Positions 5,387-58,692 of a stretch of DNA of 64,000 nt are shown here, in pieces. Positions within the stretch are counted from its first letter, which is position 1. The number at the start of each line of letters is the position of its first letter. Source of the DNA: an uncultured Candidatus Rokubacteria bacterium (lineage in GTDB: Bacteria; Methylomirabilota; Methylomirabilia; Rokubacteriales; DASRDR01); assembly GCA_963826115.1 (NCBI GenBank), contig CAWGVS010000012.1, forward strand, positions 576,001 to 640,000, given 5' to 3'. Both the position numbers and the translations under genes were made by a program. A model generated the notes under the pieces. It was not told the DNA's origin, ran no database searches, and saw nothing but the letters and a program-made list of their open reading frames with translations.

Positions 5387-5557
5387 TGGTGCGCCGTGAA
5401 GAAATCGACCCTTCAACCGACTGATCAAGAGTCCCCGCAGGGGTCCACGCATCGCCACGCGTCAGGCCCCATCCGCCCGTCACACCGAGAACACGTCTTG
5501 CGTGTTCCCTCCCGTTCGTCGTCGTCCATCTCGGCGACTTGGCACCGTCGTGGAACC
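5387..5557 (-). repeat. att-like site 1: degenerate tRNA-Lys 3' fragment plus arm
   Basis: Core 5387-5431 with 5 mismatches to consensus; arm repeats TGGCACC (5540) and TGGAACC (5551), 109 bp from core end, 11-bp period; no terminator hairpin. Confidence 0.85.
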
Positions 5558-5581
5558 GGACTACGTGCCCCGCCGGGTCGG

Positions 5582-6679
5582 CTACTCCTCGAGGAGCACG
5601 CAGTCCCGGGGGTCGGCGCTGACGAAGACCTCCTCGCCCTCGGCCATCGGCTCCGATGCCGCCGAGCGCACGATGAGGCGCCGCCCGTCCCAGTCCACAT
5701 GGTATTGCGTGAAGTCGCCGTGGAACACGCGCTGCCGGATCCGGGCGGGCCACACGTTGACCGATCCGGGCGACGGCGCGCGCGCCAGGCGGAGGCGCAC
5801 GGTGCGGATGGCCACGAGCGCCTCGGCGCCGCTTCGGCGGTCGAGGGCGGTCCCGTGGAGGAGCGCGCCGCTCGGCGTCTCGATGACCACGAGCCCGTCC
5901 TGCTCGAGGTCGGGCCGCCGCCGGCCGCGGATGAGGTTCGCCGATCCGACGAAGTCGGCCACGAACGTGTTGCGCGGGCGGTCGTAGATCTCGGCCGGCG
6001 TCCCGACCTGCTCGATGGCCCCGTCCCGCATCACCACCACGCGGTCGGAGATGGCCAGCGCTTCCTCGAGGTCGTGGGTGACGTACACCGAGGTGATGCC
6101 GAGTCGGCGCTGGAGCTCCTTCAGCTCGACCCGCATCTCCGCGCGCAGCTTGGCGTCGAGGTTCGACAGCGGCTCGTCGAAGAGGAGCACCGCGGGGGAG
6201 AAGACGAAGGCGCGGGCGAGAGCCACGCGCTGCTGCTGGCCGCCGGAGAGCTTGGCGGCGCTACGGCGGCCGAGGTCACCCAGCTGGACCAGGTCGAGCG
6301 CCTCGCGCACCCGCGCCGTCACCTCCGCGTCCGGCCGCTTCCGCACCCGCAGGCCGTAGGCGACGTTGTCGAAGACGCTCATGTGCGGCCAGATGGCGTA
6401 CGACTGGAAGACCATCGAGAGTCCGCGGTCCTCGGCGGGAACGTTCACCCGCGCGGTGGACGAGAAGACCGGGCGACCGCCGATCCGGATCTCGCCCGAT
6501 GTCGGCCGCTCGAGGCCGGCGATCGCCCGCAGCGTCGTCGTCTTGCCGCAGCCCGAGGGGCCGAGCAGGGTCAGGTGCTCGCCCGCGCCGACGTCGAACG
6601 TCACCCCGCGCACCGCGACCACCGCGCCGTAGTGGACGGTCAGGTCGCGGACCTCGATCGATGCCTGGCGCGTGCTCAC
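5582..6679 (-). CDS. ABC transporter ATP-binding protein (Fe3+/polyamine class, TOBE domain)
   Basis: GPSGCGKTT Walker [33 protein letters not shown] start at 6679 overlaps the permease stop. Confidence 0.93.
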
Positions 6680-8376
6680 TCCGCTCCCGCCTGGACGGCT
6701 CGGCGCGCCGCCGCGAAGAGCACCGCCAGCGCGACGGCCACCGCCAGGGTCTGCAGCACGGCCAGCGCCGCGGTGAGCTCGGAGTGGGTGGAGAACCAGG
6801 ACTCGACGATGGCCGGCGTCAGGACCTTGGCCTTCGGTCCCATGAGCAGGATGGACGCGCCGAGCTCCCGCACGCTGGCGATGAAGAGCAGGAGCCACGC
6901 CGCGATCAGGCCCGGCCGGAGCAGCGGCATGGTGACGGTGCGCAGCCGGTAGCCCCAGCCCGCGCCGCACATCTGGGCGGACTCCTCGAGCGAGCGGTCG
7001 ATCTGGAGGATGACGCCCGCGATCGTCCGGAGCCCGAGCGGCAGGAACACGGTGAGGTATGCGATCAGGAGCAGCCACAGCGTGCCGTAGATGGGGATCG
7101 GGAAGACCAGCCACGCCCACAGCATCCCGAACGCAAAGACCAGGCGCGGCACCGCCTGCGGGAGCATCAGGAGGTACTCGATGGCGCCGGCGCCGGGCAG
7201 CCGCGAGCGATAGATCAGCCACGCGAGGAACCCCATCAGGGGGACGCCGATGCTCGCGGTGGCGACGCCGAGGAGGAGGCTGTTCCAGAGCGCGGACTGG
7301 ACCGCGTCGAGGGACAGGGCGGTCGCGTAGTTGGCCAGCGTGAAGTTGTCCCGGCGCGGCCAGAGCGTCGTCAGCCGCTGGAACGAGGCGTAGACGATCG
7401 TCAGCACGGGCAGGAACACGGCGACGACGAGGTACGCCACGCAGAGGGCGAAGAGCGGCCAGCGGAGGCCGCGGACGTCCAGAACGCGCGGGCGGAAGGC
7501 CTTGCCGGTGATGGTGGCGTAGGTGCCGCGGGTCACGATGCGGCGGTAGATCCGCACCATGGCGAACATCACGGCGAACAGCGCCACCCCCATGGCGGCC
7601 GCCGTCGGGAACCGCGGCGGGTACTGCGACACCATCTGGTACATCGCCGTGGTGACGACGTAGAAGCGGCTCGGGAGCCCCAGGACCAGCGCCGCCGAGA
7701 ACGAGCCCAGCATCTCGGCGAAGACGAAGATGGCGGCGCCCAGAACGCCGGGCAGGACCAGCGGCAGCGTGATCCGGAGCATGGTCCGCAGGCGCCCGGC
7801 GCCCAGCACCTGCGAGGCCTCCTCGAGCGCGGGGTCCATCGACTTCATCACGGCGGCGATCATCACGAAGGCCACCGAGCCCTCGAAGAGGGCCATCACC
7901 CACGCGATCCCCCAGGGCGTGTTGATGTCGATCAGGTGGCTCCGCCCCCCCAGCGCTCGCCAGAGCTGGTTCGCGAAGCCGCTGCTGGCCGAGCCGATGA
8001 GCGCCCACGCCAGAGCGCCCATGAGCGGGGTCACGTAGTAGGGCATGGCCATCAGCTGCTCGAGCGCGCCACGGCCGGGGACGTTCGCGCGCGAGAGAGT
8101 CCACGCCAGGGCGAATCCGGCGACCACCGCGAGGACGGTGGCCACGCTCGCCACCATCAGCGTGTTGCCGAAGATGTGGGCGTAGCGGCCGAGGCCCGTG
8201 AAGTTGTCGAGGCCGTACGCCTCCGGCGGGCGCGCCTGCGGGTCGCCCACGCTGAGCGAGGCCTGGATCAGATAGGCGATCGGGTAGAGAACCAGGGCGG
8301 CCGCGGCGCCGCTCACCACCAGGCTGACAAGGAGCGGGCCCGGCCGCCAGGACCGGGCCCGCCCCACGAGGTCCAC
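6676..8376 (-). CDS. ABC transporter permease (FbpB-like, two domains)
   Basis: Two EAA loops ([22 protein letters not shown]); 566 aa, hydrophobic. Confidence 0.92.
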
Positions 8377-8386
8377 GGCGCGGGGC

Positions 8387-57700: not shown

Positions 57701-58089
57701 CCCTCGTACCGGTGGACGGCTTCCATCATCCGCTCGAGCACCGGATCCAGGAGCTTCCGCGCGTCCTCGGGGTCCCGGTCGGCCAATAGCTCCATCGAGC
57801 CCTTGAGGTCCGCGAAGAGGACCGTTACCTGCTTGCGTTCGCCCTCGAGGGCGCTCTTCGAGGTGAGGATCTTCTCAGCGAGGTGCTTGGGGGTGTACGT
57901 CTCGGGTGAGACGTACCGGGTGTGTGTCGAGACCGGCCCCGTAACAGCGTGAGCGCATTCCGAGCAGAACTTGGCCTCCGGAGAGACCTGGGTGCCGCAG
58001 TTCGGGCACGTCCGCTCGAGCGGAGCGGCGCATTCCTCACAGAACTTTGCCTGGGAGCGATTGTCATGCTGGCACCGGGGACACTGCAT
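54712..58089 (-). CDS. Double zinc ribbon, adenylate/guanylate cyclase, AAA ATPase and TPR protein
   Basis: MQCPRC..CEEC..CPNC..CSEC, ERKQVTVLFADLKGS, GDGIMALFGAP, GEPGVGKSRL, TPR tail. Confidence 0.95.
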   Translation of the reverse strand: MQCPRCQHDNRSQAKFCEECAAPLERTCPNCGTQVSPEAKFCSECAHAVTGPVSTHTRYVSPETYTPKHLAEKILTSKSALEGERKQVTVLFADLKGSMELLADRDPEDARKLLDPVLERMMEAVHRYEGTVNQVMGDGIMALFGAPVAHEDHAVRACYAALAMQAAIRRDAEEVRRRHGVVIQVRIGLNSGEVVVRAIGSDLRMDYTAVGQTTHLAARLEQLAKPDTTLLTADVLRLAEGFIAVTPLGPVPVKGLSAPVDLYEMTGAGPLRSRLHVAAARGLTRFIGRTAELEQVRQAIGRAAAGSGQVVALVGEPGVGKSRLVWEVTHSHRTHGWLIVEAGSSSYGKATPYLPVIDLLKGYFQVEVLDEPRRIQEKVTGKILTLDRALEPLLPSLLSLLEVPVEEAAWRTLDAPQRRQRTLDGLKRLLLREAQDRPVLVVFEDLHWIDDETQGLLDGLVESLPATRLMLLVNYRPEYEHRWGRKTYYTQLRLDSLPPESAAELLRALLGDEPSLQPLTRLLIERTEGNPFFLEESARTLVETGALVGGRGAYRLGGPTTAIQVPATVQAVLAARIDRLPPEEKRLLQTAAVIGKDVPEAVLQAVAEMREEDLRRGLAHLQAAEFLYETSVFPEPVYTFKHALTHEVAYGSLLHDRRRALHARVLAAMEHAGHGRLSLYAERLAHHALKGEEWARAAQYLHLAGRRAIAEARYESGVGFYETAIRALDQQGDDADLTLKLDAYLELLTARHESSQFEEKFEGYKKLMVQADALARALNDRERLAQIRVKEAQGLWMLWSGPGHLEEAIERAREAFALAAPDDLRTRSYAQFLVGAASLARGRFHDAIQEFDAGVSLFTTVPVDAEVAGLVLPIRASIRAWEAEAYAALGEFGPALAAAGEAQRIASELRHPPSQGLAGAHAGYVLLMRGHIQAAARAFEHGLASERSRGPNGLGLGLSHLLLSQRDEGMSALRRALERMGDTLGPQVKITTRYGVMLAGAYLAAGLLQEAEATAARGLALATMDGARAYHVPLGRLRAEALALQGKQPPSEEALLDWGRLLDLATELSMRPELAHCHLGLGKHYLQTGDRARAREHLTTAMTMYREMDMGFWLEKAEAALGQAG

Positions 58090-58292
58090 ACCGGGCCCCT
58101 CTCCCTTGGCGGAGCGCGGCCAGCGTAGCACGGCCAAGCCACAGGCCACCCTGCCCCCAGTCTGCACGACGGTCCGTCCACCAGTCGCCTGGCGCCGACG
58201 AGTGCCACAAATCTCGTGAGACTTCACACTTAGTCGGGGGCCCGATACCTCGCGATCCTAGAGCGGCCAAAGAACCGCGCTACTGGTCAGGA

Positions 58293-58530
58293 TGGTAGCG
58301 GGATGGTCGCAAAGACAGGATCAGGGGGCGCCGGTTACCCGGCAACCCCCTGATTTTGATGGTGAGCCGTGAAGGAATCGAACCTTCAACCTACTGATTA
58401 AGAGGTGGTCGCGGACCCGAACTCCTACGCACTCAGGAGCGCTAAGGCTACGAATCTTCTGCGTAGCCGCGTGATGGATGTGCGCCTGCGTGTGGTGGAG
58501 TTCGGTGGAGTTTGGCACTGGCGTGTCACC
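58293..58530 (-). repeat. att-like site 11: arm repeats, hairpin, perfect tRNA-Lys 3' fragment, type-A arm (arms on both sides)
   Basis: TGGTAGC (58293) and TGGTCGC (58304); hairpin ATCAGGGGG...CCCCCTGAT; core 58360-58404; TGGCAC at 58513. Confidence 0.95.
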
Positions 58531-58625
58531 GACGCTCCGGATGTGACGGGGCCCGGGCGCGAGGAGCCCCGGCCTCGCCGACTGCGACGGCGGCTGGCTC
58601 GAGGGCGAGGCCCAGGAGCGACGTC

Positions 58626-58692
58626 AAGCGCCGTGAGGCGACCTGTTCTCGTCTCACGGTGCCTTCGCGTGAATTGGAGCCGGCCTGGAACC
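58626..58692 (-). repeat. Orphan distal half of a type-B arm, core deleted
   Basis: AAGCGCCGTGAGGCGACCTGTTCTCGTCTCACGGTGCCTTCGCGTGAATTGGAGCCGGCCTGGAACC aligns with ~17955-18021. Confidence 0.85.

Follow-up and report, generated by a model that had tools for sequence, protein, structure and literature searches.

The Rokubacteria, soil bacteria that are abundant and uncultured, have large genomes, and to our knowledge hardly anything is known of how they acquire accessory genes. The DNA analyzed here, a stretch of 64,000 nucleotides from an uncultured Candidatus Rokubacteria bacterium (assembly GCA_963826115.1, contig CAWGVS010000012.1, positions 576,001 to 640,000 of the forward strand; hereafter the window), raises this question directly. 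An earlier note on the sequence described 11 copies of a 45-bp core related to the 3' part of a tRNA-Lys gene, all in one orientation and delimiting small groups of genes without an integrase, and interpreted them as a gene-cassette system in which a tRNA plays the role of the integron attI site and an integrase acts in trans. Is the array a cassette platform of this kind, or did it arise in another way? The window contains most of a 66-kb genomic island downstream of the sole tRNA-Lys(CTT) gene of this genome (designated G000; the contig is C12). Our preferred reading, to which we give a probability of about 0.62, is that this tRNA-anchored island was built by serial site-specific integration, and that its modules resemble cis-mobilizable elements (CIMEs) and are still exchanged. 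The array is not an integron, and the first interpretation, taken as a whole, is partly supported.

The cores themselves are as described. All 11 lie on the + strand, 10 of them with 0-3 mismatches to the 45-nt core and the copy at 5387 with 5, for a chance expectation of 0.00 (100 shuffles); the core-to-core intervals are about 12.5, 4.2, 1.6, 10.6, 2.7, 8.6, 2.4, 1.3, 4.4, and 4.7 kb, as stated at the time. The proposal that the core represents tRNA-Lys(CTT) from the anticodon loop to CCA proved exact: its reverse complement equals the 3' 45 nt of the only such gene detected by ARAGORN in the whole genome (12 contigs, 6.24 Mb). This gene, C12 c[647501-647576], starts at window-equivalent position 71501, 7.5 kb past the window end, on the strand that the fragments predict. 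The claim that no copy continues into a tRNA 5' half holds inside the window, in which ARAGORN identified one tRNA-Ser and no tRNA-Lys, and fails genome-wide. A search of the genome that allowed up to 9 substitutions found 14 core copies, the last of which is the intact gene; the three copies beyond the window are at window-equivalent 64777, 65780, and 71501 (the intact gene). All 14 are located on the + strand of C12 between 581387 and 647545 (66 kb), and no scatter in random orientation, nor any inverted copy, was seen. All copies thus point the same way within a single locus whose high end is the intact gene, and the array is anchored at this gene. The direct repeats, co-oriented with the intact gene at the island end and identical in kind to its 3' part, have the layout of attachment (att) site remnants, and the same layout, 3' copies with an intact gene at one end, is present in two related genomes, G003 and G008 (contig C3).

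Other properties of the island are those of acquired DNA in a defined place. Its G+C content is 67.8% vs 71.9% for the genome. The interval between tRNA-Lys and tRNA-Leu(TAG) is about 90 kb in G000 vs 4.8 kb in G019, a near-empty relative in which this interval contains an integrase remnant only. In G000, the further a core lies from the gene, the more mismatches to the tRNA it has (Spearman -0.61, p 0.03, n 13). The cores are very well kept: about half of some 60 copies in G000 and its relatives have 0 mismatches in 45 nt.

The anatomy of the repeated unit was derived from an alignment of the 11 window copies and copies from relatives. On the low-coordinate side, i.e., downstream of CCA in the tRNA sense, there is a hairpin rich in G+C, with a T-run after it on the tRNA strand, and the top four terminator-like sites in 34001-54000 are unit hairpins. 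The hairpins occur in sequence variants that are unrelated to one another (N, I, and at least three others), and the variant attached to the intact gene differs among G000, G003, and G008. A different terminator on the intact gene in each species is expected if an incoming element swaps the tRNA 3' half together with the terminator. On the high-coordinate side, identity with the tRNA ends in every copy at one base, the 5' edge of the anticodon loop, whatever sequence follows. That sequence, an arm of 130-165 nt, is of several types: 58 arms from G000 and four relatives include recurring types of 24, 13, 8, and 3 members and 10 singletons, two of which have a motif in common. Each recurring type contains two direct repeats of 7-9 nt with an 11-nt period, located about 105-135 nt from the core. 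The repeated motifs are TGGCAC/TGTCAC, TGGAACC, TCTCGGACA, GGTAGCAG, and GGTAGCC, and the motif pairs of the arms have no other occurrence in the 6.24-Mb genome. The arm types are unrelated by sequence, and the phased layout of the repeats is common to all recurring types. Judged from this layout, the phased pairs are probably arm-type protein-binding sites.

The low side differs between hairpin variants. Phased pairs are also present on the low side of I-type copies, and in 12 such copies the conserved block ends right past a GGTAGC pair, whether the DNA further on codes for integrase or is of one of three unrelated kinds. In 20 N-type copies, low-side conservation consists of the hairpin and about 10 nt only, with 30-40 nt more in a subset. 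Across species, arms are 85-94% identical, which is about equal to the cargo; selection, recency, and gene conversion cannot be separated as causes of this conservation. Within the arm of core 36961, at 37150-37170, the part of the core next to the crossover recurs as a short copy (GAACCTACTGATT), and similar short copies also precede some N-type hairpins in relatives. We also considered TTGGCAC-N5-TGTCAC as a sigma-54 promoter and rejected it: judged by eye, its -12 element misfits the consensus, and other arm types have different repeats at this place.

The att remnants of the window are all on the + strand. The most distal one (5387..5566) comprises core 5387-5431 and a type-B arm, with no recognizable hairpin. 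Type-B arms are also found in the remnant at 17806..18030 (N-type hairpin, core 17851-17895, TGGAACC twice at 18004) and in that at 47946..48165 (N-type hairpin, terminator-like on the - strand; core 47986-48030; repeat pair at 48139). Type-A arms follow the N-type hairpin and core in four remnants: 22017..22235 (core 22056-22100 with 0 mismatches, repeat pair at 22209), 34236..34452 (core 34275-34319, the low edge of a module with AraC, SnoaL, and SDR genes), 45549..45764 (core 45587-45631), and 49226..49441 (core 49264-49308, hairpin terminator-like on the - strand). The remnant at 23700..23880 consists of core 23700-23744 and a type-C arm with TCTCGGACA twice at 23851, and that at 36922..37135 of an N-type hairpin (terminator-like, - strand), core 36961-37005, and an arm with GGTAGCC twice at 37114. 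The two remaining copies have I-type hairpins and type-A arms. One (53620..53868) has a GGTAGC pair at 53626, a hairpin that is terminator-like on the - strand, and core 53691-53735; the other (58315..58537) has an integrase-tail remnant, one degenerate GGTAGC/GGTCGC pair, and core 58360-58404.

If these sites were made by integration, traces of integrases may be expected beside them. A profile search of the whole genome for tyrosine integrases (PF00589) gave one match inside the array, at window 53404-53568. It belongs to open reading frame (ORF) 53152-53703, which encodes a C-terminal catalytic region with box II residues; the integrase fragment proper (53392..53703, + strand) covers positions 112-165 of the 172 of the profile, and its frame runs through the I-type hairpin and stops within core 53691. 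A tail remnant of an integrase precedes core 58360, and none was found in the other 11 modules of G000. The earlier statement that no module contains an intact integrase is therefore borne out, with these two fragments added to the picture. Beside the anchoring tRNA there is no PF00589 match, the nearest being the array fragment (C12:629404) and a fragment at C12:690923, 43 kb off. Nor did G000 yield a close full-length relative of the array integrase, the best match being a 43% identical fragment. The five full-length recombinases of G000 were considered as enzymes that might act in trans and were set aside, as none adjoins a tRNA gene and their identity to the family does not exceed 34%.

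Full-length members of the family do occur elsewhere. In a family-level search the closest was a gene of G019, which belongs to another genus; its 396-aa product is 76% identical over the fragment, and an HTH_17 excisionase-like ORF precedes it. (Contig C11 of G019, with a xis-like gene and an integrase, has no core.) Searched against species genomes, the G019 protein detected 28 loci, titled as Candidatus Rokubacteria/Rokuibacteriota and other soil phyla. Five loci at 26% identity (four titled Haemophilus, the other an uncultured bacterium) were left out. Of the 23 examined, 14 have an integrase gene that converges on a core copy or a tRNA gene, with a gap of about 40-130 nt from the integrase 3' end in 13 loci and of about 190 nt in locus L073. 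Both L048 and contig C171 of genome G020 have a full-length integrase against an intact tRNA-Lys(CTT) within the same His-Arg-Arg-Lys tRNA cluster, the arrangement classically associated with recent integration of an element at this gene. Across the order, full-length relatives (E at most 1e-60) were found in 11 of 183 genomes, G045 counted. When seven full-length integrases were compared by tblastn with 548 kb of arrays, they matched in 4 places, each a C-terminal remnant located 31-186 nt on the low side of a core. Because these remnants abut cores, at least some modules derive from integrase-bearing elements. Viral contigs contained neither a match to the exact string of core plus type-A arm nor a relative of the L048 integrase.

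The modules between the cores are small and varied. With genes called by a third-position G+C filter rather than a gene finder, about 12 genes of the region 5387-58404 are on the + strand and about 21 on the - strand. At least 13 units are present in G000, each module has a core on either side, and a module contains 1-9 genes, among them AraC, ArsR/MarR, and sigma-54 activator regulators; transport, redox, regulatory, and cell-envelope functions make up the cargo. Of the contents listed in the earlier note, Pfam supports AraC+SnoaL+SDR, asparagine synthase, DUF2079, a solute-binding protein, and DinB+cyclase, and leaves the CapK-like ORF unassigned. Apart from one integrase fragment, neither integrase nor relaxase or transfer genes were found in the called ORFs with Pfam, PHROGs, and NCBIfam, and no replication, transfer, or phage genes were found among the ORFs unassigned by Pfam. 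The claim that modules lack replication and transfer genes thus stands, and it extends to four other genomes of the genus that were fetched; in the arrays, neither a conjugative element nor a partner with a functional integrase was detected. Pseudogene fragments are present within modules. A HerA-like helicase gene (PF05872) of the module closest to the tRNA is split over three frames (L001:8999-9616, window-equivalent 68999-69616), a piece of which gave a weak terminase-like match in PHROGs.

Relatives reveal how such arrays vary. A 216-nt unit used as query matched in 31 of 41 genomes (G000 and G038 counted), including 11 of the 14 other genomes of the genus, and gave at least 19 scored matches in each of three genomes. 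The G003 array, in the syntenic place, extends over 91 kb; besides the intact gene it comprises 12 fragments and another three partial copies. The arrays of G014 and G008 are spread over several contigs, some of which end at cores in G014. With contigs oriented by their first core, all further copies in the relatives are on the same strand, and three relatives have at least 12-17 units. The array contigs fetched from G003, G014, G008, and G001 have no PF00589 match save one weak piece on G008 contig C69. Array contents of G000 and G003 are almost wholly different, and the chromosome beyond the tRNA cluster is syntenic.

The pieces that are shared between genomes are whole modules. The integrase-less AraC+SnoaL+SDR module of 2.69 kb (window 34275..36961), with an AraC-type regulator at 34614-35597 (-), SnoaL at 35704-36123 (+), and SDR at 36120-36902 (+), occurs in G000, G003, and G001 with identities of 95.2%, 96.1%, and 96.9% over 2.68-2.69 kb. 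At two other loci, syntenic background has an identity of 76-89% for the pair G000 and G003 and of 79-91% for G000 and G001, the two pairs for which it was measured. The module begins at a core in all three genomes, and its neighbors on either side differ among them. Its hairpin is truncated in G003, and in G001 its high-end core has been deleted between two GTGGTG strings, a deletion of microhomology type. A 1.55-kb module (G003 module 9) is shared by G003 and G014 at 96%, the match running from core to core, and a 5.9-kb module (G008 module 3) by G008 and G014 at 94%. The gene for an AMP-binding enzyme (window 43338..45227, + strand), which lies within module 36961-45587, is 96% identical between G000 and G008. 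On G008 contig C30 it forms its own 2.3-kb module bounded by cores, so the larger G000 module is a fusion that has lost an internal core. The AraC module and a second shared module are in reversed order in G001 vs G003, which loss from one ancestral array cannot explain. On this sequence evidence, integrase-less modules have passed from species to species and shifted position since the species diverged. The view that the repeats are attachment sites at tRNA-Lys that delimit modules is upheld by these comparisons, in which modules recur in other species with breakpoints at cores and with other neighbors.

Some further comparisons of array DNA were made. Homologues of the SDR gene (76-83% amino acid identity) were examined in 80 metagenome loci as possible copies of the module; in 0 of the 80 was there a core, an integrase, or an AraC gene, and we regard them as ordinary homologues of a cargo gene. 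Contigs C3 (L035-L036) and C4 (L037) of G008 contain 99.6% identical segments in permuted arrangement. The moved segment carries cargo (amidohydrolase, Ku) with no transposase or insertion sequence, and the C4 junction is within a truncated hairpin; the two contigs represent an assembly chimera or, alternatively, a pair of haplotypes within one bin. Logan contigs from other samples, with at most 0.36 of sampled words, gave pieces of 200-1200 nt against 45000-64000, none of which bridges a core; their joints have short sides of 20-42 nt within repeat families.

Similar scars are associated with other tRNA genes of G000. The gene for tRNA-Thr(CGT) at C6:5892 has four partial 3' copies (C6 31627, 37277, 38612, and 47731) within about 42 kb, and the same integrase family adjoins tRNA-Thr(CGT) in other phyla. 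The other tRNAs have 0-2 partial 3' copies, and two of them have integrase fragments alongside. These copies speak against a single dedicated platform. The two integrase C-terminal fragments, at C12:792461-792694 (155 nt from tRNA-Ala(GGC)) and C12:690923-691063 (134 nt from tRNA-Arg(TCT)), are scars of the same kind. A partial 3' copy of tRNA-Arg(TCG) was also observed at C12:648309-648348 (window-equivalent 72309), between two tRNA-Arg genes whose spacing is 3 kb in G000 vs about 160 nt in G003; this suggests one small insertion at tRNA-Arg(TCG) too. In addition, ARAGORN labels C12 c[686301-686373] as tRNA-Pyl (anticodon CTA), and a partial 3' copy of this gene or of the neighboring tRNA-Arg(TCT) lies at C12:685028.

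Several known systems have features in common with this locus. Fragments of tRNA genes are well-known scars of integration (PMC9897764). A CIME is defined by the loss of integration and transfer genes and the retention of attL and attR, and islands of Streptococcus are described as decaying to att-bounded, integrase-less CIMEs and as growing by accretion at the site containing the gene's end (PMC5704250). The modules of G000 likewise have att sites on both sides and no integration or transfer genes, and they are similar to the CIMEs related to ICESt1 of Streptococcus also in their tandem arrangement at a tRNA 3' end. They differ from them in number, with at least 13 units in one genome, in having several arm specificities per site, and in belonging to an uncultured soil phylum; moreover, neither conjugation nor mobilization genes were found here, and the likeness in cis mobilization is putative. 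Tycheposon islands of Prochlorococcus, according to a preprint, are located beside tRNA genes, where successive integrations push older elements inward; they contain scattered, fragmented integrases and extra partial tRNAs, and carry genes for nutrient uptake and other niche functions, termed plug-in cassettes (bioRxiv 10.1101/2020.12.28.424599). The same preprint describes 1-2 integrase-carrying elements per genome, with replication modules (bioRxiv 10.1101/2020.12.28.424599). Our island resembles these in its position by a tRNA gene, its partial tRNAs, and its integrase fragments; it differs in that neither a replication module nor an intact integrase was found, the HerA-like helicase pseudogene being the only candidate piece.

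Among tyrosine integrases, a classification (Williams 2002) is said to cover tRNA-targeting enzymes with crossover in the anticodon loop, and in the Myxococcus phage Mx8 the integrase 3' end reportedly overlaps attP. By analogy, the identity block from the anticodon loop to CCA and beyond, and an integrase gene that converges on the tRNA, would place the array elements with the former, and the integrase frame that ends in a core recalls the latter.

An integron has an IntI-type gene by attI with a cassette promoter; its attC sites are imperfect inverted repeats recombined as folded single strands, and its cassettes are mostly single, promoterless, co-oriented ORFs. The array is like an integron in its ordered small gene units, its stereotyped site between them, and its one fixed anchor, and in G000 the youngest units may lie nearest this anchor. 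As to kind, the analogy drawn in the earlier note does not hold. No IntI-type gene is present next to the tRNA-Lys anchor, the repeats are tRNA 3' halves with arms rather than attC-type folded sites, and the units contain genes on both strands with their own regulators. A sigma-70 scan of 34001-54000 gave 0 promoter-like sites. That one integrase served the whole array in trans is also unlikely, given arms of at least four recurring types.

The locus sets itself apart from known islands by the number and regularity of its units and by the near-total lack of integrases across the genus; further differences are the several arm types per site, the retention of both arms in some integrase-less modules, and the core-to-core sharing between species. 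No description of it was found in the literature searched, which excludes most subscription journals, and by title and abstract nothing on the topic was found in searches on Rokubacteria with integrase and tRNA.

From the observed anatomy, anchoring, distribution in relatives, integrase remnants, and module sharing, we infer an order of events, a binding of proteins to the repeats, and routes of exchange. Small cargo-carrying integrative elements would enter the tRNA-Lys gene one after another, with crossover by the tyrosine integrase of each at the 5' edge of the anticodon loop. Along with every element would come a tRNA 3' half and a terminator of its own, so that the tRNA gene stays intact, and each insertion would displace the previous copy further down the island. 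The residue of every event would be a core, the arm of the element with its two phased direct repeats, and a hairpin. Integrase and excisionase genes would later be lost from nearly all modules, or may never have been present in some, and the outcome would be att-bounded, integrase-less modules of the CIME kind. These might move by hitch-hiking with a visiting integrase-bearing element, by the action of its integrase in trans, or by homologous recombination between att repeats; mobilization of modules in trans is possible.

A number of observations weigh against serial integration followed by decay. An integrase remnant was detected in only 4 of about 60 modules examined, and integrase-bearing descent of the rest is assumed. 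In several modules the stop codon of a cargo gene is about 20 nt from the hairpin, e.g., that of SDR at 36902, and no trace of a deleted integrase is present there. The 15 genomes of the array-bearing genus, several of which are incomplete, yielded no close relative of the integrase at full length. Nor was a complete element recovered in which an integrase and cargo lie between the two att sites, the contigs of L048 and G020 C171 ending beside the integrase. The age gradient of core mismatches is not seen in G003 (rho -0.30, p 0.34). The low-side GGTAGC pair, kept in 12 copies and in four unrelated contexts, looks more like a retained working site than random decay. Finally, all genomes appear to be metagenome assemblies. 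Plain decay is favored by remnants that occur at the expected place only and by the bare low side of N-type copies beyond the hairpin, and retained function by the GGTAGC-bounded I-type copies, the mismatch-free cores, and the 85-94% arm identity.

As the earlier note proposed, the locus could instead be a true cassette system whose modules never had an integrase, are excised as circles, and are inserted in trans at tRNA-Lys or at any core, from a pool shared by the genus. The almost integrase-free arrays of five genomes agree with this, as do the exact core-to-core edges of modules of 1.0-5.9 kb that are 94-97% identical across species, the mismatch-free half of the cores, and the 12 integrase-less copies that keep both the low-side pair and the high-side arm, i.e., both attP-like sides. 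We nonetheless hold it unlikely. No candidate integrase was found at the tRNA and no close relative of full length in the 15 genomes of the genus, several integrases would be required to serve the four or more arm specificities, low-side conservation past the hairpin is lacking in the 20 N-type copies, remnants at 4 cores attest to integrase-bearing ancestors, and genes lie on both strands with regulators of their own. We take a similarly doubtful view of the related proposal that integrase-less modules are working cassettes with enough of attP (a core, the high-side arm, and, in I-type copies, the low-side GGTAGC pair) to be excised and re-inserted in trans by the integrases of transient elements, which would make the tRNA-Lys locus a tyrosine-integrase analog of the integron with a species-shared pool. 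Another alternative, a fossil array in which att sites are dead and differences arise by homologous recombination or deletion between repeats of 90-280 bp, uptake of foreign array DNA included, seems improbable to us. In its favor are the failure to find a cognate integrase in the genus, the pseudogene fragments, and the deletions at or inside cores (the core lost in G001, the truncated hairpin in G003, the fused modules in G000), and the length and similarity of the repeats would probably suffice for recombination of RecA type. Many independent integrations, though, are indicated by the several unrelated types of hairpin and arm, and the terminator of the intact gene varies by species; this variation, together with arms conserved across species about as highly as cargo, also fits recent site-specific activity.

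Two further explanations were considered. The array could be an assembly artefact in which population variants at one tRNA-Lys site were strung in series across a shared repeat. G000, apparently a metagenome bin like the other genomes, has a contamination of 5.3%, G014 contigs break at cores, and G008 has its two 99.6% identical versions in different arrangements. But the G000 array is embedded in an 880-kb contig and that of G003, at the syntenic site, in a 790-kb contig, multi-copy arrays with unique cargo are present in four independent relatives, and graded core decay and internal deletions suggest real age; we therefore consider an artefact very improbable. Hardly credible, finally, is a functional RNA or regulatory cassette, such as a tRNA-like 3' element with a terminator, even with a terminator-like hairpin on the tRNA strand of each copy and conserved arms. 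The consensus fold of 15 type-A units comprises the T-arm and the terminator hairpin only; covariation is absent (term +0.15), with compensatory change in 3 of 51 pairs, the hairpin-variant swap included. An Rfam scan of the window gave 0 matches, arms unrelated in sequence have the same phased layout, and an integrase frame ends in a core.

A few observations concern neighboring sequences. ARAGORN places a tRNA-Ser(CGA) at window 475-567, and the Rfam scan, at gathering thresholds, returned zero matches for the tRNA family as well. Two large proteins of different modules (28183-32280 and 54712-58227), a sigma-54 activator with AAA_16 and TPR and a zinc-ribbon adenylate/guanylate cyclase with AAA_16, both have an AAA_16 region, and their genes have a 300-nt repeat in common at 70% identity. 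Tandem repeats at 60458-62280, about 990 nt apart and with segments 73-97% identical, overlap a gene for an NMT1-like binding protein and thereby suggest neighboring paralogues.

For Rokubacteria, these data mean that a single hot spot can acquire 13 or more units, as it did in G000, and that units were exchanged between species. The matched arm repeats and integrase tails could reveal the site grammar of this integrase family. If it is true that modules mobilize without an integrase of their own, the locus would represent a second, independent route to an integron-like cassette platform; otherwise, it is an unusually clean record of serial integration.

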